Assembly (NCBI GenBank): GCA_964597895.1
Contig: CAZQZS010000001.1
Location: 81,008 to 145,007, forward strand
Length of the DNA: 64,000 nucleotides
Direction of reading: 5' to 3'
DNA from: an uncultured Candidatus Saccharibacteria bacterium
Lineage (GTDB): Bacteria > Patescibacteriota > Doudnabacteria > UBA920
A model generated the notes under the pieces. It did no database searches. It was given only the letters and a program-made list of their open reading frames with translations, and was not told the DNA's origin. Of this stretch, positions 1,643-50,125 are shown piece by piece (the stretch's first letter is position 1; each line of letters opens with the position of its first letter). The position numbers and the translations under genes were made by a program.

Positions 1643-3676
1643 ATGCAACAAAAAGTATTGCTTTGGTTTACAGCATTGGCTGTAGCTATTGGCAGCATGG
1701 CTGGTTTGGCTGTACAGACTGCCCGGGCCGAAGTGGCGGCTCAGCCGATTGTTATTTCGGCAGTTCAAGTCTCCGGAGGGGACGGCTTTGTTAATCAGGA
1801 TTTTATAGAGCTATATAATCCGAATCCGTACCCAATGGATTTAAACGGACATCGATTGGTAAAGCGTTCCGCAAATGGCACTGCGGATAGCTCAATCAAA
1901 TCATTTTCGGCAGAAACAATCATTCCGGCTTATAGTTTTTATCTGTGGGCCAATTCTTCCTGGTTGGATATTGCTGTAGTGCCTGATGCTACAACTTCGG
2001 CTACACTAGCCAACGATAATGGCGTGGCTTTGCGCCAGGGTGCATTAGACACTGGGACGATCATTGATAGCCTAGCTTGGGGAGAAACTAGCAATGGTTT
2101 TGTAACTACAGGTTTATCTAACCCCTCGGGAGGAGAATCTGTAGTCAGGCAAGATTTGTTTGAGAATCTTGGCTATTTTCTGGCTAGCAGCAGCCCGCGA
2201 AACAGCAGTGTTCAAGTGTTGCCAGATCAAATCCCTGAGCTAACCGATAACGCTCAGTGTGGTGTAGAAAATCATTCTGTCCAAGTAGCGCCTGGTCAAT
2301 CCTTGCTGCTGAACCTTAACTTGGTAAATTTAGGAAACACGGTTTGGAGCAGCTCAAATTATTTTGTCCAGCAAAATTATACTTCTAGTGAGCTACGAAT
2401 AAGTTTGGGCAAAGATGTAAATCCTCTAGAACAGATTACGCTTGCTTTAACTCTATCCGCACCCGTACAGATCGGAGAGTACTTTTACCAATGGCAGATG
2501 AATTCTGGAGTACAGCTGTTTGGGGAGGTGTGCTCAATGACCGTGACGGTGCAGGTGGAGGTGCCGGATGATCAACCAGGTAGCCAGGCCAAGACAGTTC
2601 AGATCACCGAATTTCTGCCTAATCCAATCGGGGAGGATAATGGTTTTGAGGTGGTGGAGTTACATAATTTTGGCAATACTGTAATCAACTTAGAAAATTG
2701 GGTTTTAGATGACGTTTTAACAGCACCTTTAAGTTCAAATGCATTTGTCCTGGGAAATCAGACATTGGGAGCAGGGGAATATGTTGCCATAACGATTCCT
2801 TCGGGCAAATTTGGCTTGAATAATAGCGGGGGAGATGGTTTAGGCTTATTTGACCAAGAAGGCGAATTAATCAGCAAAGTTACTTATACGAGCACGGCCC
2901 CAGAAGGTAAGTCGTATAGCTTGATTGGCGGTTCTTGGTACTGGTCAGCGCCAAGCCTGGGATCGGTTAATCTAGAATTGCCGTCAGATAATCCAGACAT
3001 TCCCGATGATTCTGATGACGAAGCACCACCTGTTGATCCTGAGCCTGATGATGAGTCAGTGAATTATGAACTGATAATTTCGGAAATCTACCCAGCGCCC
3101 AAACCAGCGCAAAAGGAGTTTGTGGAGATTTATAACCCCAGCGTTTCATTGGTAAATCTGTCGGCCTACAAACTAGTTATCGGATCTAGGGCACAAGTTT
3201 TGCCTGATGTAGATTTGGGGAGCGGGGAATATTTTATACTAACCGGCCAAGATTTAAAGCTTCCTTTGGCAGATTCAGGGAAATTAATTCAACTGCAATC
3301 TCTTTCGGGCGAGATTATAGATGAAGTTGAGTATCCAAAGGCTCTTAAGGGGAGCAGCTATGCTTGGGCTGAGGATAGTTATGTTTGGACTTTAACGCCA
3401 ACTCCTGGACAAGCTAATCAACTGACTGTGTCTGGTGAGGGTCGCTCAAGCAAGGCTAAGCCTGCCAAAAAAACTGTGCCAGCAAAAGTTGCCAAGCAGC
3501 CCATAGCCGGAGTAAGCGAGACTAATCAGGACAAATTTCCTCAGGAAATTGCTCCAGCTTTAGCTCCTCCAGCCCAACAACCCAAGGCTAACATTATCAA
3601 TGCTATAGCCATTGGTTTTGCAAGCTTAAGCGCTGGTGTTTATGCGCTGTATAAATTCGGAATAGCTGGGCTTTAG
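1643..3676 (+). CDS. secreted/membrane-anchored protein with three lamin-tail-like domains
   Basis: Signal peptide; three repeats of the V.ISE..YNP....EF+ELYN...L.GW pattern (aa about 45, 320, 470); C-terminal TM helix; strong RBS aaaggag. Confidence 0.6.
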   Translation: MQQKVLLWFTALAVAIGSMAGLAVQTARAEVAAQPIVISAVQVSGGDGFVNQDFIELYNPNPYPMDLNGHRLVKRSANGTADSSIKSFSAETIIPAYSFYLWANSSWLDIAVVPDATTSATLANDNGVALRQGALDTGTIIDSLAWGETSNGFVTTGLSNPSGGESVVRQDLFENLGYFLASSSPRNSSVQVLPDQIPELTDNAQCGVENHSVQVAPGQSLLLNLNLVNLGNTVWSSSNYFVQQNYTSSELRISLGKDVNPLEQITLALTLSAPVQIGEYFYQWQMNSGVQLFGEVCSMTVTVQVEVPDDQPGSQAKTVQITEFLPNPIGEDNGFEVVELHNFGNTVINLENWVLDDVLTAPLSSNAFVLGNQTLGAGEYVAITIPSGKFGLNNSGGDGLGLFDQEGELISKVTYTSTAPEGKSYSLIGGSWYWSAPSLGSVNLELPSDNPDIPDDSDDEAPPVDPEPDDESVNYELIISEIYPAPKPAQKEFVEIYNPSVSLVNLSAYKLVIGSRAQVLPDVDLGSGEYFILTGQDLKLPLADSGKLIQLQSLSGEIIDEVEYPKALKGSSYAWAEDSYVWTLTPTPGQANQLTVSGEGRSSKAKPAKKTVPAKVAKQPIAGVSETNQDKFPQEIAPALAPPAQQPKANIINAIAIGFASLSAGVYALYKFGIAGL

Positions 3677-3852
3677 TCAAACAATTTTGCGTGTTAAAAT
3701 GTTCATATCTATGGAATATCTCAAAAAAATCTGGAAGTGGATAGAAATCGGTATAGGGTTTGTAATTAATAGCCTCGGGAATCTCATTCTGCCTGGTTAG
3801 AAAATTTATTTTAGGTATGTTATAATTCAGAAAATCAGTAATTTGATGCTTT

Positions 3853-4164
3853 ATGAGTTTGAACAAATCTGATTTAATTGAGGTTTTGGCAGCCCGTTTG
3901 TCTATCACTTATACAGAAGCCGAACGCATGCTTAATGCCTTTATTAATTTAATCTACGAATCGCTCAAAAACGGCGAGAAAGTTAACATTAGCGGCTTTG
4001 GCCAGTTTAGCGTTTCTCATAGAGCGCCACGCATTGGTGTTAACCCGCGTAATCCTACCCAAAAGATAGAGATTCCAGAATTGAACACCCCAAAGTTTAA
4101 AGCCGGAGAGGCTTTTAAAGAAGCTGTGAAGTTAAGAAAAAATTCTAGCCATATACAAGAATAA
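3853..4164 (+). CDS. hup: HU/IHF family DNA-binding protein
   Basis: 103 aa with HU signature (GFGQFSVSHRAPRIGVNPRNP). Confidence 0.85.
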   Translation: MSLNKSDLIEVLAARLSITYTEAERMLNAFINLIYESLKNGEKVNISGFGQFSVSHRAPRIGVNPRNPTQKIEIPELNTPKFKAGEAFKEAVKLRKNSSHIQE

Positions 4165-4165
4165 A

Positions 4166-4192
4166 TAAAACCGCCGTAAGGCGGTTTTATTC
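4166..4192 (+). terminator. rho-independent terminator after hup
   Basis: aaaaccgcc-gtaa-ggcggtttt hairpin plus T-run. Confidence 0.6.
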
Positions 4193-4230
4193 TAATTAAG
4201 AAAAAAGCACCGAACGAGATGTCTTTTCTT

Positions 4231-4631
4231 TGGAGCGGGTAAGGGGAATTACGCGTCGGCTTTCTGCTGAAAGCCTCCTTGCCCGGGGTTGCGGAAACCT
4301 GCCACTGGCAGCTTTCCGATCGTTCGCTTTCGGTTTTCTCTGCAGAGAAAACCTCAGCTCACTTCAACCCGTTCGATTCCTCTATAATCATTCCAAAGTA
4401 AAAGCCCCAGCTATCGCTGAGGCATTTACTTTGGAGCGGCTAAGGGGAATGTCGCGTCGGCTTTCTACTGAAAGCCTCCTTGCCCGGGGTTGCGGAAACC
4501 TGCCACTGGCAGCTTTCCGATCGTTCGCTTTCGGTTTTCTCTGCAGAGAAAACCTCAGCTCACTTCAACCCGTTCGATTCCGCTAACTCACCAAAATAAA
4601 AAAGTACCAGGCAAGCTGATACTTTTTTATT
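4231..4631. repeat. 200/201-bp tandem repeat (2 copies) ending in the tRNA-Gly gene; each copy begins with a 19-nt duplicate of the tRNA-Gly 3' end
   Basis: tggagcgggtaaggggaat at 4231 and 4432 (1 mismatch) equals the 3' end of tRNA-Gly at 4632; the rest of each unit is near-identical between copies. Confidence 0.75.
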
Positions 4632-4706
4632 TGGAGCGGGTAAGGGGAATCGAACCCCTATCATCAGTTTGGAAAACTGAGATAATAACCATTATACGAT
4701 ACCCGC
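4632..4706 (-). tRNA. tRNA-Gly (anticodon UCC)
   Basis: Manual cloverleaf: acceptor GCGGGTA/TACCCGC, anticodon stem TCAGT/ACTGA, loop TTTCCAA, T-arm AGGGG-TTCGATT-CCCCT, discriminator U, CCA encoded; close to E. coli glyT. Confidence 0.85.
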
Positions 4707-4742
4707 AATCTAATGGTGATCAAATTTCTGCTTGGGGCAAGT

Positions 4743-4814
4743 TGGAGCAGGCTCACGGAGTGTAGCGACGGGAGCCGTCGCGACAACGCAGGTTAAGCAG
4801 AAATTTGTAAGGCA
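4743..4814 (+). ncRNA. conserved structured motif copy B
   Basis: Paralogue of 601-672 with compensatory change in the closing helix. Confidence 0.3.
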
Positions 4815-4883
4815 CAATAATGCGGAAGGTGGAGTGGGTCCGCCAGGGGCGGGCACACGCAACCTGCAGCATTAATTGGGCCG

Positions 4884-4960
4884 TGGTCGGGAACCCGGGA
4901 CTCGAACCCGGAACCTCTCGGTCCCAAACCGAGTGCTCTAGCCAATTGAGCCAGTTCCCG
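4884..4960 (-). tRNA. tRNA-Pro (anticodon UGG)
   Basis: Manual cloverleaf: acceptor CGGGAAC/GTTCCCG, anticodon stem CTCGG/CCGAG, loop TTTGGGA, T-arm CCGGG-TTCGAGT-CCCGG, CCA encoded. Confidence 0.85.
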
Positions 4961-5203
4961 AAGCATGATTGCCTCAAATCTACATATGTTACCGAGCCAC
5001 AGCCATCTAAGGCTAGAGGCACTCGGTGAGTGCACTATCTCTTGGTCTGCCTTGGGCAGAACCCAATTGAGCCAGTTCCCGAAGCATGATTGCCTCAAAT
5101 CTACATATGTTACCGAGCCACAGCCATCTAAGGCTAGAGGCACTCGGTGAGTGCACTATCTCTTGGTCTGCCTTGGGCAGAACCCAATTGAGCCAGTTCC
5201 CGT
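4944..5203. repeat. 121-bp tandem repeat, about 2.1 copies, first copy overlapping the 5' 17 nt of tRNA-Pro
   Basis: aattgagccagttcccgaagc... recurs at 4944, 5065, 5186 with identical units. Confidence 0.8.
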
Positions 5204-5263
5204 CGCACATATACATCAAATACAAGTTATTCTACTAATTTTGTCGTAAAAAATCAAGCTGGA

Positions 5264-5292
5264 TTGACATTTATAGGATTAATCTGTAAAAT
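5264..5292 (+). promoter_or_regulatory. sigma70-like promoter
   Basis: TTGACA - 17 nt - TAAAAT, followed by RBS aaaggagg and ATG 5353. Confidence 0.5.
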
Positions 5293-5352
5293 GATATAAC
5301 TGATTTTAGGTTCGGCAATTGGCCCGTATTTTGTTCAAAGGAGGAAACTAAC

Positions 5353-5886
5353 ATGTTAGGTGGAAGGCAGATCTTTGGTTTGGCGGTTTTTGTTTTTGTC
5401 GTCGTATCGTGGGTCGCATGGTACGATTGGTCGAAGTTTTATAGTTCGGCTTGTGAGGAGTGGGGATCGTCTGCTATTGACTGCAACAGCGAATCCTATC
5501 GTCCTGCCGATAAGGTCAAGCACTTGCACGAGTATGTGCGCAATCCTGGTAATGCCAAAAGTTTTCAGCAGTACCAACAGCTGGATACAAATAGAGTTAA
5601 GTACTCCGCCGCTGTCCTCAAGACAGACAATGGGGTATATTACTTGAACGCTTTTCCAGATTCCCTTCAGGTTTTGTTTGTAAAGAATGGAATGCAAGAT
5701 CCGGAATTTGGCTGGCAGGATTTTGATGCCGACGGCACCATTGATTTTGCCACCAGGAGGTTGGTCGATAAGTCACCTCCAGTAGTCTACGATTCCGAGA
5801 TGGGCTTAAACCGTGACCTTAGACCCATATTCCAAGCTGCTTACTCTATGCACGTAGAGACCATCACTACCAGGCTTGGCCTGTAG
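5353..5886 (+). CDS. hypothetical membrane-anchored protein
   Basis: 177-aa ORF with strong RBS, N-terminal TM helix; no recognisable family. Confidence 0.45.
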   Translation: MLGGRQIFGLAVFVFVVVSWVAWYDWSKFYSSACEEWGSSAIDCNSESYRPADKVKHLHEYVRNPGNAKSFQQYQQLDTNRVKYSAAVLKTDNGVYYLNAFPDSLQVLFVKNGMQDPEFGWQDFDADGTIDFATRRLVDKSPPVVYDSEMGLNRDLRPIFQAAYSMHVETITTRLGL

Positions 5887-5891
5887 GCGTT

Positions 5892-5926
5892 AGCGGTCGT
5901 TGTTAACGGCCGCTTTTTTATTTTGA
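5892..5926 (+). terminator. rho-independent terminator
   Basis: agcggtcg-ttgttaa-cggccgct hairpin and T-rich tail. Confidence 0.45.
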
Positions 5927-6866
5927 CTTTATATTGGTAGATCTCTGCGCAGCTTGCACAAACAAAACTTTAGCTATTTTTAGGCTAGATTATGACTTTT
6001 AAGCCATTTTGCAAGACAATTTGCTCGGCCAGACCTTCAAGCTAACCGTGAATATACCCCCATAATTAGTTGACCTTTTTGGCCAGGTATTTTATAATAT
6101 ATGCACAAATGAAAAAGATTGGTTGCCAATTAAATAGCAATCTCCAAATGCGCAAATAAGCGTATTTTTGCCAAATCTCCGTATTTTGGCAAAAATCTCC
6201 ATATTTTGCGTGTTTTTTGTTACCAAAGTTGGCCCAAAGTAGTAAACATATATACATTAAAAAATCAGCCATTTTTTGTAACAGCTTACTAGTATAGACG
6301 TCTAATTTACCGTAATCTGACAATCCTAGAAACAAACACCTAAAAAATCGAGTTTAGAGTAATGCCTGACAGACAGGTATCACCCTGAACTTGAATTGTG
6401 TCATTCTTGGGCTCTACCCTGAGCTTGTCGAAGGGGAGAGAGCCGGGATCTATAATTTATGGATCCCCGGCCGCCGTCGGCGCCAGGGATGACAACTAAA
6501 GAATTCTCGGGCGTGAACCGGGATTCCACAAGTTCAGTTAGTTCTTTTTAGTTATTGACTCATTTTGTACCGTTTCTCAAAAGGTGACTTACGTATTAAT
6601 CACCGAGGCCGGTTGGTAGTCTGAGTTAGCGTTAGATTCCTTGGTCCTAGATCAGGGAGGCCTATGCAAACTCGCGGCGCTCTTGCAGCGTCCTGCCCAC
6701 CCGTTTTGGCAGTAAGTATCCTTGGTCGAACTTTTGGGAGCGAGCGCGTGCGAAATGAATTATCAATAATCGGTCTATGTTTGAAATAGGCGAGCGTGAA
6801 CTCTAGAGCTCGCTCGAAACTAACAGATATAGCTCGTTAAACCTAATTAATATTTTTTGAATCTTT

Positions 6867-20092: not shown

Positions 20093-20379
20093 AATCTCTA
20101 AAACGCTATTTAGATTTACGCAAATTAACCGAACTGCTTGCAACCAAATTTGCCTTGGTGCTTTGGTTGGTTTTGGCTTTGGTCTTGCTCGGCGAGGCCT
20201 GGGTAATCAAGGGTTCTTTGGATAAGATTTTAAAGGCTAATGATAATTCACAGGTTGGTAATGCACAGGTTATTCGAGTTAATTTTTCCTTGTATGACGT
20301 AATTGAGAAGCGTTTAATAGATAATCAAACCTACCTGCCTCCAGAGCCAACCACACGCGATCCTTTTGGTGTGAAGTGA
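20089..20379 (+). CDS. hypothetical small membrane protein (end of pilus operon)
   Basis: 96 aa, ATGA overlap with the pilO-like gene, one TM helix. Confidence 0.35.
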   Translation: MKSLKRYLDLRKLTELLATKFALVLWLVLALVLLGEAWVIKGSLDKILKANDNSQVGNAQVIRVNFSLYDVIEKRLIDNQTYLPPEPTTRDPFGVK

Positions 20380-20457
20380 ACTGAGTAGCCATCGCATGGA
20401 TTCTACAAGGACCTATCTTTTTAGCCATTTAGATATCTAATTTAAAACAACAGGGTT

Positions 20458-20575
20458 GTCTGCTAAAAGCCTCGTTGATCGGGGTTGCGGAAACTTGCCA
20501 CTGGCAGCTTTCTCGATCGTTCAACGCGAATTTTTCTGCAGAAAAATTCTTGCTTCACTTCAACCCGTTCGAGTC
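20458..20575. repeat. tRNA-associated conserved module, copy 3 (22-nt perfect palindrome gaatttttctgcagaaaaattc at 20528-20549)
   Basis: Aligns with 4255-4380 and 4456-4581; shared ggggttgcggaaac.tgccactggcagctttc.cgatcgttc ... cttcaacccgttcga. Confidence 0.55.
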
Positions 20576-20593
20576 ATTCCTAGGAAAACCATA

Positions 20594-20625
20594 AAAAAAT
20601 TCCGAACAAGTCGGAATCTTTTTTT
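20594..20625. terminator. bidirectional terminator (A-run, hairpin, T-run) between pilus operon and tRNA-Lys
   Basis: aaaaaaa-attccga-acaag-tcggaat-cttttttt. Confidence 0.55.
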
Positions 20626-20627
20626 GG

Positions 20628-20700
20628 TGGGTCGGGTGGGACTCGAACCCACGACCGAGTGCTTAAGAGGCACCTGCTCTACCAGCTGAGCTACCGACCC
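20628..20700 (-). tRNA. tRNA-Lys (anticodon CUU)
   Basis: Manual cloverleaf: acceptor GGGTCGG/CCGACCC, anticodon loop CTCTTAA, T-arm GTGGG-TTCGAGT-CCCAC, CCA encoded. Confidence 0.85.
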
Positions 20701-20763
20701 TAGTTTGTAAATACCGCGTAATTATAGCAGATTATAGGGAATTTTGCAACGGATGCGGCTATT

Positions 20764-21435
20764 TTAGAATTTTTTAATGAAATAATCGTTGGCAAACTGC
20801 AGCTGTTTGGGCGTGCCAACTGGAAGCCAGCGAGTAGCACTAACAAGATTGACTTTAGTATTCAGTGCCAGTTTCGCCAAGGTGTGGGGGAGGCTATATT
20901 CAATACCATTTGGCACAGGCACATCAACTAAAGGAATAGAGAAGAACTCTTCTGTTAAGAAGTAGGCACCGCAGTTAATCAAACTGGATTGGTCACTGAA
21001 ACCACCGAAGCTATTGTCTTCATTGCGGACTATTCCATAATTGCTAGTTGCTTGGCTCTGCCAAACTAGCATTGAATTGGGGAGTGCGATGAGCTGTTCT
21101 AGATCTTTCTTCTCATAAAGGTCATCGCCATTCAAGACCAAGAAAGGGCTTTGCAATAAATCTTTAGCCCTGTGCAACGCATCTCCAGTGCCTAGGAGCT
21201 CGGTCTGTTTGACATAATGAATTTGCTTAGTGTTCCAATAACTGCCAAAATGTTCTACGATTTGCTCGCCTAAATAGCCAACCACGATAATAACCTTGTC
21301 TATACTGCTTGGCAAAGCGCCGAGCGTATATTCCAACAAAGGCTGATGGTTGATTTCTATCAAAGGCTTAGGGTGTTTTTCGGTGAATGGCCGGAGGCGC
21401 AGACCTTTGCCGGCGGCGAGAATGACAGCTTGCAT
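20764..21435 (-). CDS. sugar-phosphate nucleotidyltransferase
   Basis: N-terminal MQAVILAAGKGLRLRP nucleotidyltransferase motif; ORF extends to 21474 but the internal ATG is preferred. Confidence 0.65.
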   Translation of the reverse strand: MQAVILAAGKGLRLRPFTEKHPKPLIEINHQPLLEYTLGALPSSIDKVIIVVGYLGEQIVEHFGSYWNTKQIHYVKQTELLGTGDALHRAKDLLQSPFLVLNGDDLYEKKDLEQLIALPNSMLVWQSQATSNYGIVRNEDNSFGGFSDQSSLINCGAYFLTEEFFSIPLVDVPVPNGIEYSLPHTLAKLALNTKVNLVSATRWLPVGTPKQLQFANDYFIKKF

Positions 21436-21502
21436 ATTTTCTAATCCCAAAGGTTCCAGCAGAATTTGGTACAATTAAATTACAATTAATTGGAGGTGTG
21501 AT

Positions 21503-21679
21503 ATGGGTTGCGCTCGTGATAACGAAATGGTAGTGGCTGGTCGGTGTGCCGAACTACAGATTCCATACTTTGCTCCAAGCAAATATCAGTCTAGAAGTTG
21601 GCATAAATTGCTACCAGTAATGAATTTGCTATTAGGCGCTTTTGTCTTTACTGTTTATCGGTTACGATTTTTGATTTAA
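21503..21679 (+). CDS. small hypothetical protein (58 aa, C-terminal TM helix)
   Basis: Strong RBS GGAGGTG 5 nt upstream of ATG; own hairpin terminator immediately after the stop codon. Confidence 0.45.
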   Translation: MGCARDNEMVVAGRCAELQIPYFAPSKYQSRSWHKLLPVMNLLLGAFVFTVYRLRFLI

Positions 21680-21706
21680 ACGGAACTTCTGTTCCGTTTA
21701 TTTTAC
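21680..21706 (+). terminator. rho-independent terminator
   Basis: acggaac-ttct-gttccgt followed by ttatttt. Confidence 0.5.
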
Positions 21707-21716
21707 AATCAAAAAG

Positions 21717-21743
21717 ATTGATGGTGCTCTCGGTAGGATTCGG
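21717..21743 (-). repeat. 27-nt duplicate of the tRNA-Arg(UCG) 3' end, located 204 bp downstream of the tRNA
   Basis: gattgatggtgctctcggtaggattcg is identical at 21717-21743 and 21919-21945. Confidence 0.75.
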
Positions 21744-21924
21744 TCACCTCCCGCTACTCTCCTCTCCTTCGACAAGCTCAGGATCGTCGAGTAACGCTGC
21801 GGCGACCCCCGCCGCTATTGATTGCTCCAAATAGTCGCAACCAATTTCCGCTTGCGCGGAACCGCTCTTTTTCTTATCCTGCTGTGCAATCAATCATTTA
21901 TCATCTACGATGAGAAATGATTGA

Positions 21925-22001
21925 TGGTGCTCTCGGTAGGATTCGAACCTACGACCCCTTGTTCCGAAGACAAGTGCTCTAATCCACTGAGCTACGAGAG
22001 C
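21925..22001 (-). tRNA. tRNA-Arg (anticodon UCG)
   Basis: Manual cloverleaf: acceptor GCTCTCG/CGAGAGC, anticodon stem CTTGT/ACAAG, loop CTTCGGA, T-arm GTAGG-TTCGAAT-CCTAC, CCA encoded. Confidence 0.85.
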
Positions 22002-22062
22002 GAGTAAGAATCCCCGTAAGTTTAGCTCAAAATGGCTTCTAAATCAATGCTATAATCTAGCT

Positions 22063-22989
22063 ATGCTAACTTTACTTATTGGCCAAGATATCTTCGCAAA
22101 ACAGGAGTATTTGGACGCAGAATCAGACAAACACGGTGCAGAGGTAGTAAAATATGATAACATTGCCCAGGTGCCGAATTTAGTTAATCTATCTGGGGCG
22201 AACCTGTTTGGTGGGGCCACGGTCCATGTTTTAATCGGGCTGTTAAAAGAGTATGAATTGCCAGAATTAGAGAAAGCTGCAAGCAGCGAGAGCCTGATTT
22301 ATTTCTGGGAGGATTCGGTAGATAAGCGGCTCACGAAGACTAAGAGCTTAGCAAAAATTGCCGCTATGCAAGAATTCCCGGAACCAGATGCCAACTCGGC
22401 CAGTGCCTGGATCATTAAGCATGCGGGTCAGAATGAAATTAAAATCCAACCTTCTGCGGCAGCTGAGCTCGCAAAGCGTTTATTAGGGGAAACCAAGCTT
22501 GCATTGCCTGTGGTCGCTGCTCACAATGAATTGTTAAAGCTCGCAAGTTACTCGGGCGATAGGGCCATTACCGTAGCTATGGTAGAGGAGCTAACCCCGC
22601 GCGATTTAAGCATTGATATCTTTGGGTTATTAAACCATATTGCTTCTGGGAATAAATCTTTGGCTATGCAGGCCATTAAAAATTATTACGACAACTCCAG
22701 TGAAGATGATAAGGTGCTAACTATTAGATTAGTAGCCTTAATGTCTGATCAGCTGCGCAGTTTGTTGATTGCTAAACAACTTACCGAGCAGGGTTTAACA
22801 GAACAGCAGATTTTAACTGCCACTGGCTGGAAGAGCGGACGTCTTTTTGTTATGAATAAGCTCGGGCGTAATTTTAACCAACCACAGCTGAATACTAGCC
22901 TTACCAAATTATATAATTTAGATAAAGAATTAAAGTCTTCTACATTGCCGCCTCGCGCGGTAATGGATATGATTGTAGCTTCAATTTGA
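22063..22989 (+). CDS. DNA polymerase III delta subunit-like protein
   Basis: 308 aa; weak resemblance to the HolA N-terminal domain; assignment tentative. Confidence 0.4.
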   Translation: MLTLLIGQDIFAKQEYLDAESDKHGAEVVKYDNIAQVPNLVNLSGANLFGGATVHVLIGLLKEYELPELEKAASSESLIYFWEDSVDKRLTKTKSLAKIAAMQEFPEPDANSASAWIIKHAGQNEIKIQPSAAAELAKRLLGETKLALPVVAAHNELLKLASYSGDRAITVAMVEELTPRDLSIDIFGLLNHIASGNKSLAMQAIKNYYDNSSEDDKVLTIRLVALMSDQLRSLLIAKQLTEQGLTEQQILTATGWKSGRLFVMNKLGRNFNQPQLNTSLTKLYNLDKELKSSTLPPRAVMDMIVASI

Positions 22990-43660: not shown

Positions 43661-44143
43661 ATGGCACCTAAACATCAAAAACCAGTTGTGAGCGGGGTGG
43701 AGCGCTTGGCGGCTAAGTTTACTGCCTGGCTAGGATCTCCGGCATCTATTATTGCCCACACCTTTGTTTTTATTGGCGCGTTTGTTTTTGTTTTGCTCGG
43801 CACGCCTTTAAATACTGTGTTGCTGGTATTAACGACTGCTGTTTCGCTTGAAGCAATTTATCTGGCGCTATTTATTCAGATGAGCGTAAATAAGAATACA
43901 CAAAGCTTAGCCGAAGTTGAGGAAGACATTGAAGAAATCGCCGAAGACGTTGAGGGGATCGAAAAAGACATTGATGAAATCGAAAAAGACATTGATGAAA
44001 TCCAAGAGGATGTAGAAGAGATCGAAAAGGATGATGAAGATGATTTACATGATGCTGAAACAATGAAGACTCTTTCTGAGTTGCAAAACCACATGATTAC
44101 CATCACCAAAGAAATTCAAAACCTCAAAGAACAGAAAAAATGA
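43661..44143 (+). CDS. DUF1003-like membrane protein with acidic repeat tail
   Basis: Two TM helices then EDIEEIAEDVEGIEKDIDEIEKDIDEIQEDVEEIEKD repeats. Confidence 0.45.
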   Translation: MAPKHQKPVVSGVERLAAKFTAWLGSPASIIAHTFVFIGAFVFVLLGTPLNTVLLVLTTAVSLEAIYLALFIQMSVNKNTQSLAEVEEDIEEIAEDVEGIEKDIDEIEKDIDEIQEDVEEIEKDDEDDLHDAETMKTLSELQNHMITITKEIQNLKEQKK

Positions 44144-49987: not shown

Positions 49988-50064
49988 TGGTGGCCTCGAC
50001 TGGGATCGAACCAGTGACCTTGGGCTTAGAAGTCCCCTGCTCTATCCAACTGAGCTACGAGGCC
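49988..50064 (-). tRNA. tRNA-Arg (anticodon UCU), non-canonical anticodon stem
   Basis: Perfect acceptor and T-arm, D-arm identical to E. coli argU, loop CTTCTAA; anticodon stem has G27.A43 and A31.G39 mismatches. Confidence 0.6.
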
Positions 50065-50090: not shown

Positions 50091-50125
50091 AAGCCCCTGC
50101 TCTATCCAACTGAGCTTCGGAGCCG
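50091..50125 (-). pseudogene. tRNA-Arg 5'-half fragment (acceptor, D-arm, start of anticodon stem)
   Basis: GGCTCCGAAGCTCAGTTGGATAGAGCAGGGGCTTC is about 90% identical to tRNA-Arg(UCU) nucleotides 1-35. Confidence 0.5.

Follow-up and report, generated by a model that had tools for sequence, protein, structure and literature searches.

A probable tandem duplication of a conserved tRNA-derived leader module on the 5' side of a tRNA-Pro gene in an uncultured CPR bacterium

Organization of the tRNA-Pro locus

The window analyzed here, a stretch of DNA of 64,000 nucleotides, contains on its minus strand an intact tRNA-Pro(UGG) gene with an encoded CCA end (4884-4960), detected by ARAGORN and by the Rfam tRNA model (66.5 bits), and, downstream of it on the same strand, a tRNA-Gly(UCC) gene (4632-4706; ARAGORN and Rfam). 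A tandem array occupies positions 4942-5202, between tRNA-Pro and an ORF of 177 aa, and the gene encoding an HU protein (hup) is located 700 bp away; among the close homologues of this HU protein is one assigned by its source to Candidatus Doudnabacteria, and the genome belongs to the CPR/Patescibacteria. Since tRNA-Pro is encoded on the minus strand, the array forms the 5' leader of the gene, upstream of it. It is not situated in the hup-tRNA interval to which the initial annotation had assigned it.

Tandem Repeats Finder describes this array with a period of 121, 2.2 copies, 100% matches and no indels. Counted as perfect 121-bp units it comprises 2.16 copies, bearing out the 121-bp repeat of approximately 2.1 copies that had been annotated, and a repeat search returns two full 121-nt copies with 100% identity plus a partial third copy. 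The block common to the tRNA and the units is CGGGAACTGGCTCAATTGG, corresponding to nt 1-19 of tRNA-Pro, which is present three times on the minus strand of the window (4942-4960, 5063-5081 and 5184-5202) against a chance expectation of 0.02 occurrences; three copies were not reached in any of 100 shuffles. The earlier observation that the units carry the 5' end of tRNA-Pro is hence correct, with a shared length of 19 nt instead of about 17 nt, and the repeat reported from position 4944 is real in a register that may begin at 4942. As had also been proposed, the intact gene supplies one of the copies: the innermost block (4942-4960) is the first 19 nt of tRNA-Pro itself.

Read on the minus strand, the locus presents a promoter-like site, a leader of ~25 nt, two successive combinations of CGGGAACTGGCTCAATTGG with 102 nt, and the intact tRNA. 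Both 102-nt stretches between tRNA fragments are identical in a scripted comparison, and tandem-repeat and identity comparisons thus delimit an inner 121-nt leader module (4961-5081, minus strand) and an outer one (5082-5202, minus strand) that are 100% identical to each other. The units keep tRNA sequence in direct orientation only for nt 1-19 and nt 21-30, and both ARAGORN and the Rfam tRNA model detect the intact gene alone, which discards the units as tRNA genes or pseudogenes with a cloverleaf. No dispersed copies of the unit were found in the 64-kb window and 37 loci of relatives (designated here by L numbers), in which it is confined to tRNA-Pro, and an interpretation as a REP or MITE dispersed repeat was accordingly rejected. 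A coding repeat, like tpr in tyrT, was also rejected, because the ORFs across the array are not conserved and the indels between lineages are not multiples of three.

A consensus scan identified a sigma-70-like promoter, TTGATT-17-TAGAAT (5229-5257, minus strand; 9/12 matches), ~25 nt 5' of the outermost tRNA fragment. Equivalent promoters are found at the matching position in L010, L014, L022 and L025, and this site is likely to be the promoter of a leader/tRNA-Pro/tRNA-Gly transcript. The same type of scan detected no promoter or minus-strand terminator within the units, and flagged one of their hairpins (hairpin 2, described below) as terminator-like on the plus strand (5019-5033 and 5140-5154). 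With an external promoter, and with no promoter or minus-strand terminator inside the units, the array is most likely a long 5' leader. Removal of tRNA 5' leaders by RNase P is an established pathway, and the sequence layout suggests that the whole array would be transcribed from the promoter 5' of the outermost fragment and, most likely, cut off by RNase P at +1 of the true tRNA.

Anatomy of the 121-nt module

On the minus strand, the inner module is composed of the copy of tRNA nt 1-19 (5081-5063), hairpin 1, a linker, hairpin 2 and a tail (5009-4961). In the RNAalifold consensus, hairpin 1 (GGGUUCUGCC-CAA-GGCAGACC) spans 20 nt (5044-5063; 5165-5184 in the outer unit), forms eight pairs and is inserted 3' of G19 of the pseudo-copy. 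Hairpin 2 (UAG-U-GCACUC-ACC-GAGUGC-CU-CUA), delimited by alignment and consensus fold, lies at 5017-5036 and, in the outer unit, at 5138-5157, again on the minus strand. The 5' arm, within the 102-nt part, directly repeats tRNA nt 21-30 (module, TAGTGCACTC; tRNA, TAGAGCACTC), and the 3' arm is supplied by an inverted copy. Local alignment further delineated a minus-strand block of 17 nt, ACCGAGTGCCTCTAGCC (5011-5027; outer unit 5132-5148), that is the antisense of nt 18-33 of tRNA-Pro apart from a single additional base. This inverted copy attains an alignment score of 27, compared to a shuffle mean of 14.5 (sd 2.1), with none of 500 shuffles reaching 27, and the last four nucleotides of the block, AGCC, are able to pair with the GGCU of fragment nt 9-12 (stem S0, which is part of the consensus fold). 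The tRNA-derived content of the unit is thus larger than the 5' end that had been recognized initially, when both the direct copy of nt 21-30 and the inverted copy of nt 18-33 were missed.

The tail encompasses ~50 nt. In L010 it resembles that locus's own promoter-proximal leader, with 8 of 1000 shuffles scoring as high; the similarity is not significant in the window, L014 and L027, and a leader origin of the tail is supported for L010 but not for these three. The simplest reading of the sequence is that the module would derive from the 5' region of the tRNA-Pro gene itself, copied in part and rearranged. From this layout we infer that the leader and the 5' part of the tRNA would have been duplicated long ago, with a snap-back inverted junction and an extra hairpin in the D loop of the pseudo-copy.

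The module in related bacteria

The orthologous loci with which the initial annotation had proposed to compare tRNA-Pro were reached through HU homologues of the hup/tRNA-Gly/tRNA-Pro region, with L019-L021 added by a pattern scan of a genome collection. The 177-aa neighbor yields a single cluster of 99% identical homologues in a set of 5.8 billion proteins and is of no use for locating distant loci; contigs encoding an identical or 99% identical neighbor were assigned to the same species as the window. The comparison reveals zero-copy, single-copy and shorter-variant states. The conspecific contigs L003, L005 and L035 contain exactly one module (tRNA, 102 nt and 19-nt fragment), identical to the inner module of the window, within flanks that are ~99.4% identical to it. 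One copy is also present 5' of tRNA-Pro in L010/L019, L014/L021, L020 and L027, so that four Candidatus Doudnabacteria lineages carry the module besides the species of the window. An empty site, with a plain promoter, leader and tRNA and no fragment, is seen in L022 and L031/L032; L013 and L025 harbor a shorter variant made up of a 13-nt fragment and a REP-like hairpin, and L026 has a different insert inside the leader. These data do not support the proposal that the array was templated directly by the tRNA, since a single-copy module pre-exists in other strains of the species and in four other Doudnabacteria lineages.

The window, L010, L025 and L026 share a conserved leader upstream of the outermost fragment, and the 19-nt fragment of the outer module (5202-5184) occupies the position of the tRNA start in relatives with an empty site. 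The conservation of this outer leader indicates that the gene originally began at the outer fragment. L013 and L014, although near-identical strains, differ in their alleles (P2 and P1, respectively), a pattern more readily explained by allele exchange or mobility than by simple vertical decay. Pattern scans of JGI metagenomes for the module returned 0 matches, as did scans of viral contigs with the patterns of hairpin 2 and of the type A and type B cassettes described below; BLAST comparison of the unit with phages and plasmids gave no match, and a literature search found no description of the Pro leader module. REP-like hairpins with arms CCTGCGAAGC and GCTTCGCAGG surround tRNA genes in L025 (3870-4120, 4310-4345 and 5306-5734) and L013 (6245-6270). 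The insert of the shorter P2 leader is one such hairpin, and a gene for a Y1 transposase (PF01797) lies 1 kb away in L025.

Evidence for copy-number variation

The number of modules differs among samples, with one in the three conspecific contigs versus two in the window. The junctions of the array can be told apart by diagnostic 31-mers: TTGGGCAGAACCCAATTGAGCCAGTTCCCGA for unit-to-unit, the same 30-mer followed by T for unit-to-leader, and GAGTGCTCTAGCCAATTGAGCCAGTTCCCGT for tRNA-to-leader, the zero-copy state. The 30-mer common to the unit-to-unit and unit-to-leader junctions is TTGGGCAGAACCCAATTGAGCCAGTTCCCG, and contigs L001, L002 and L004, from three other samples, start exactly at this 30-mer and continue with T. 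Logan contigs are, as we take it, built at k=31. In a graph of that order, a start at TTGGGCAGAACCCAATTGAGCCAGTTCCCG implies that a second successor, the A of the unit-to-unit junction, was present in the reads, which argues that arrays of at least two copies really occur, at these contig ends, in three other samples. Likewise, L005 starts exactly at the 30-mer preceding the tRNA-to-unit junction, and a zero-copy allele would by the same reasoning, applied to this one contig, coexist in that sample. Both copies in the window match each other and the conspecific single copy perfectly, as expected of a very recent event.

The short-read contigs L006-L009, L017 and L018, from related strains, end 18-156 nt past hup, where the region of the Gly cassettes begins. 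Repeats of this kind appear to cause systematic fragmentation of the assemblies in this clade. At tRNA loci, assemblies from short reads are broken by such arrays, and many contigs end in them.

Conservation and predicted folding of the module

In an alignment of the module from five lineages (A1), hairpin 2 with the AGCC that follows it, nt 8-19 and the base of hairpin 1 are invariant or nearly so. Nt 1-7 are variable, with C1 replaced by T in L010 and a deletion in L020, and the tail can hardly be aligned. The Y-shaped fold predicted by RNAalifold has three helices, namely a closing stem (UGGCU/AGCCA), hairpin 1 and hairpin 2, in which 98% of the cells are paired on the consensus structure, compared to 23-47% with the partners slid (five sequences). 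The central four pairs of hairpin 1 have been replaced on both sides, yielding three versions (TCTG/CAGA, CGAA/TTCG and TTAG/CTAA). Overall, 4 of the 21 pairs changed on both sides, all of them in hairpin 1, a count that stems from five sequences and that self-correction of a DNA palindrome could produce in imitation of RNA-level selection. Taken by itself, the unit of the window lacks hairpin 2 at minimum energy and has a folding z-score of only -0.9; the full leader and tRNA fold with z = -3.7 against shuffles, a value inflated by the tRNA and by the two identical units.

In the predicted minimum-energy fold of leader and tRNA, the outer decoy acceptor strand pairs with the 3' strand of the tRNA and one antisense block pairs with tRNA nt 18-33. 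These pairings point to a risk of mispairing from the decoy strand and from the antisense block. Nt 8-19, the hairpins and the closing stem are kept, with the decoy acceptor strand (nt 1-7) and the tail free to change, and we read the conserved Y-shaped fold as a putative device for self-insulation, whereby the 17-nt anti-tRNA block and the copy of the D arm would stay paired within the module. Hairpin 2 would lock the antisense block inside the module, hindering its mispairing with the real tRNA. We infer this function from the structural models; a positive regulatory role of the module is conceivable but speculative. No Rfam family was found beside the tRNAs in permissive searches of 3500-6300 and 20300-22100 (E-values up to 10), nor in a search of the whole window at the gathering threshold. 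Decoy and antisense segments of a tRNA in its own precursor leader raise the question of how RNase P processing proceeds under a minimal RNA-processing machinery.

Comparison with known tRNA-associated repeats

The repeat of the E. coli tyrT/tyrV locus was reportedly first described by Egan and Landy in 1978. In NC_000913 it consists of a 178-bp unit in 3.1 copies with 95% matches, in which the last 19 nt of tRNA-Tyr, AATCCTTCCCCCACCACCA, recur every 178 bp (rttR RNA, tpr). Similarly, each unit of the Pro array bears a 19-nt terminal block of the tRNA, the first copy of which is supplied by the gene. In contrast with tyrT/tyrV, the Pro array is located 5' of its gene, carries nt 1-19 together with inverted nt 18-33, and has no rtT sequence or Rfam similarity and no conserved ORF. 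The tyrT repeat is the closest known case, and the Pro array is a mirror image of its layout on the 5' side, extending the classical picture to that side of a tRNA gene. A close counterpart of tyrT/tyrV, on the downstream 3' side, is provided by a second array at this locus, with units of 201 bp that contain the last 19 nt of tRNA-Gly.

Integrating elements commonly leave partial tRNA genes behind (PMC9897764). Elements with an integrase, among them the T-loop class of tyrosine integrases exemplified by mycobacteriophage Ms6 (PMC1762012), span kilobases, bear the integrase gene and duplicate the 3' part of a tRNA, starting at the anticodon loop or the T loop and extending to the 3' end (PMC1762012; PMC9897764). 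The Pro module resembles these attL/attR duplications in that a direct repeat of a tRNA terminus brackets the inserted DNA and in that relatives have an empty site; it differs from them in duplicating the 5' 19 nt and in having an insert of 102 nt. Positions 1-30,000 contain 20 ORFs of at least 150 aa, and none of them showed an integrase or recombinase domain when scanned with Pfam. The att pattern is a better fit for the type A and type B cassettes at tRNA-Gly and tRNA-Arg than for the Pro module.

As in a VNTR generated by unequal recombination or slippage, the Pro units are identical head-to-tail copies that vary in number, with a progenitor situated between 19-bp direct repeats, a single module between two 19-nt copies being found in L003, L005 and L035 (same species), L010, L014 and L027. 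Unlike an ordinary VNTR, the unit is a conserved, structured and tRNA-derived sequence rather than anonymous DNA. Rearrangement by snap-back or quasipalindrome template switching is a general mechanism, and the direct partial copy immediately followed by its inverted copy that constitutes hairpin 2 is what such an event would leave; this likeness concerns anatomy only, and hairpin 1 is left unexplained by it.

Proposed origin of the array and alternative explanations

We consider it probable that the array is a copy-number variant of a pre-existing tRNA-Pro leader module, which would have arisen through an old rearrangement followed by a recent duplication. The first step, common to several Doudnabacteria lineages, would be a partial duplication and rearrangement of the 5' region of the gene, producing the ancestral promoter and leader, tRNA nt 1-19, the 20-nt hairpin, nt 21-30, inverted nt 18-33, a leader copy of ~50 nt and the intact gene. 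The layout suggests as its cause a break near the anticodon loop, followed by aberrant break repair or template switching; GIY-YIG endonuclease genes adjoin tRNA-Pro in L022 and L028, an observation that we count in favor of this account. In the second step, recent and specific to the lineage of the window, a second identical 121-bp module would have been added at once by unequal homologous recombination between the 19-bp direct repeats, which lie 121 bp apart, or by slippage between them during replication, and the same process can delete a module precisely. Recombination or slippage at these repeats would account for the zero-, one- and two-copy states seen or deduced at this locus.

A different origin would be the accretion, in two successive insertions, of a small mobile or integrative cassette, non-autonomous and directed at the D-loop region of tRNA-Pro, with a copy of nt 1-19 as part of the cassette itself. 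Such an element would fit the exact boundaries between presence and absence (L022 and L031 being empty) and the different inserts of the sister strains L013 and L014, and it finds a parallel in type B cassettes, which are absent in L025, present in L026 with a 20-nt duplication, and bracketed, as cassettes of this kind are, by tRNA-end repeats; moreover, partial tRNA genes are known to arise most commonly from the integration of mobile elements (PMC9897764). We regard it as improbable, given that no integrase, transposase or reverse transcriptase was detected by Pfam in the 20 ORFs of at least 150 aa at positions 1-30,000, that the 5' end of the tRNA is duplicated here and the 3' part by known tRNA-targeting integrases, that tRNA-Pro is the sole site in the window and 37 loci, with no match in viral contigs, phages or plasmids, and that the tail is poorly conserved across lineages, as a mobile unit would not be. 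The complete identity of both copies and of their conspecific single-copy progenitor also fits duplication in place. The identity of the two copies, together with a unit length of 121 bp close to typical read and k-mer lengths and the one copy of three conspecific contigs, is at the same time what would be expected if the assembler had expanded a single-copy locus. We deem such an artefact very unlikely, since contigs of three other samples start at the k-1 boundary expected of a unit-to-unit junction and since perfect tandem repeats are usually collapsed during assembly, expansion being rare.

The module could also have a function of its own as a structured RNA. Acting either as a cis-regulatory leader or as a small RNA that RNase P sets free, it would adjust the maturation or the yield of tRNA-Pro and tRNA-Gly, and its duplication would be an adaptive change in dose. 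The Y-shaped fold kept in five lineages, with compensatory changes in hairpin 1 amid neighboring sequence saturated with changes, the invariance of nt 8-19, hairpin 2 and AGCC, the complementarity of the 17-nt block to the D arm and anticodon stem of the tRNA, and the better folding of the whole leader and tRNA than of shuffles (z = -3.7) are in line with such a role. This explanation is nevertheless doubtful: the module is absent in L022 and L031 and replaced by a different, shorter insert in L013 and L025, it has no Rfam match, much of its conserved sequence is tRNA-derived, and the z-score of the full transcript owes part of its size to the tRNA and to the two identical units. A group I intron was rejected, since such introns interrupt tRNAs at position 35/36 (PMC13011429) and since no intron model matched. 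On balance, the array is probably a recent and likely polymorphic duplication of an older, conserved, tRNA-derived leader module, and not a new kind of system. It offers a natural worked example of an array of variable copy number that was seeded by a short partial duplication at a tRNA gene, with zero-, one- and two-copy states visible or deduced in wild populations of an uncultured CPR bacterium.

Other cassettes at tRNA gene ends

The Gly array noted in the initial annotation is real (4224-4585, minus strand; 1.8 copies of a 201-bp unit, 96%), and, in partial support of the hotspot of tRNA-templated duplications proposed there, the region is rich in partial tRNA copies: 4 of the 7 tRNA genes in the window have one nearby, and a fifth, tRNA-Lys, has a downstream cassette. 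In each unit of the Gly array a structured core, here called type A, precedes the 3'-terminal 19 nt of tRNA-Gly and a hairpin resembling a terminator. Type A cores (CGAACGGGUUGAAG...GCAACCCCGG...) are ~110-140 nt long and have no Rfam match. In the window they are located at 4224-4585 (two copies, downstream of tRNA-Gly) and at 20459-20575 (downstream of tRNA-Lys), and in relatives downstream of tRNA-Gly in L010 (4222-4393), L026 (700-822) and L028 (5016-5172). Their RNAalifold structure comprises 38 pairs, 20 of which changed on both sides in at least one sequence, and the strand signal is balanced, at 6 G-U cells versus 5 C-A/A-C cells. On these models, type A may constitute an undescribed RNA or mobile-element family.

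A second cassette, type B (…GAAAAAGAGCG…TTGCGACTATTTGGAGCAATC…AGCGGCGGGGGTCGCCGCAGCGT…AGCGGGAGGTGACC), is ~176-190 nt long. It follows tRNA-Arg(UCG) in the window (21716-21945, with the insert at 21743-21918), tRNA-Pro in L013, L014 (~5950-6110) and L026 (1082-1260), tRNA-Gly in L027 (~5905-6130), and tRNA-Ala in L037 (6940-7090), the single locus obtained from the JGI metagenome pattern scan. Its intact distal end is a direct copy of 20-27 nt of the 3' end of its own tRNA, reduced to 6 nt in L037, and its insertion polymorphism is clean, with L025 empty and L026 filled and carrying a 20-nt duplication. Cassettes of both types open, past the terminator hairpin of the tRNA, with a diverged inverted copy of the 3' end of their own tRNA, and their intact distal end is a direct copy running from the T loop to CCA; this fragment is wholly or partly missing at tRNA-Lys and in L037. 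Their layout mirrors that of the Pro module.

It is conceivable, if unlikely, that the Pro module and the cassettes of types A and B, which lie downstream of tRNA-Gly, Lys, Arg, Pro and Ala, together form one unrecognized class of small structured CPR cassettes, which would colonize the ends of tRNA genes by direct and inverted copying of the terminus (5' end to D loop upstream; T loop to CCA downstream) and whose conserved folds would act as RNA on tRNA maturation. The trigger might be a break by a homing endonuclease or tRNA-primed reverse transcription, and candidate generators of the cassettes are integrase scars, repair of endonuclease breaks with snap-back, and tRNA-primed reverse transcription halting in the T loop. 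As covarying elements bracketed by tRNA 3' ends, these cassettes are candidates for a new RNA or mobile-element family, and they may be a more novel lead than the Pro array.

Small GIY-YIG genes are found next to or between tRNA-Pro and tRNA-Gly in L022 (4119-4430), L028 (5359-5613) and L010 (6004-6261), and the encoded endonucleases are a possible source of breaks at these tRNA genes. The gene in L028 is bracketed by GGGTTCCCGACCAAAT repeats, which consist of the 3' end of tRNA-Pro and three trailer bases.

A further partial copy lies at 50094-50124 on the minus strand, where a 31-nt pseudo-copy of nt 1-31 of tRNA-Arg(UCU), with a diverged acceptor strand, is located 30 nt 5' of the intact gene (49988-50064). 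It stops at the edge of the anticodon loop, as does the Pro pseudo-copy, and the gene is enclosed by the inverted repeat ATGAACTCTTGC/GCAAGAGTTCAT. In the spacer from tRNA-Pro to tRNA-Gly (4707-4883, minus strand), the first ~94 nt are 86% conserved with L010, and the spacer also contains a long hairpin with a covarying stem (CAAATTTCTGCTT/AAGCAGAAATTTG in the window, CAATCTTTCACTT/AAGTGAAAGATTG in L010), and a copy of this hairpin region with 74% identity is present at 579-664 of the window. Two other short tandem repeats were observed in the window: a 20-bp unit in 2.5 copies at 6161-6208, in the intergenic region past the 177-aa ORF, and a 21-bp unit in five copies at 43923-44028, within the ORF at 43661-44143.
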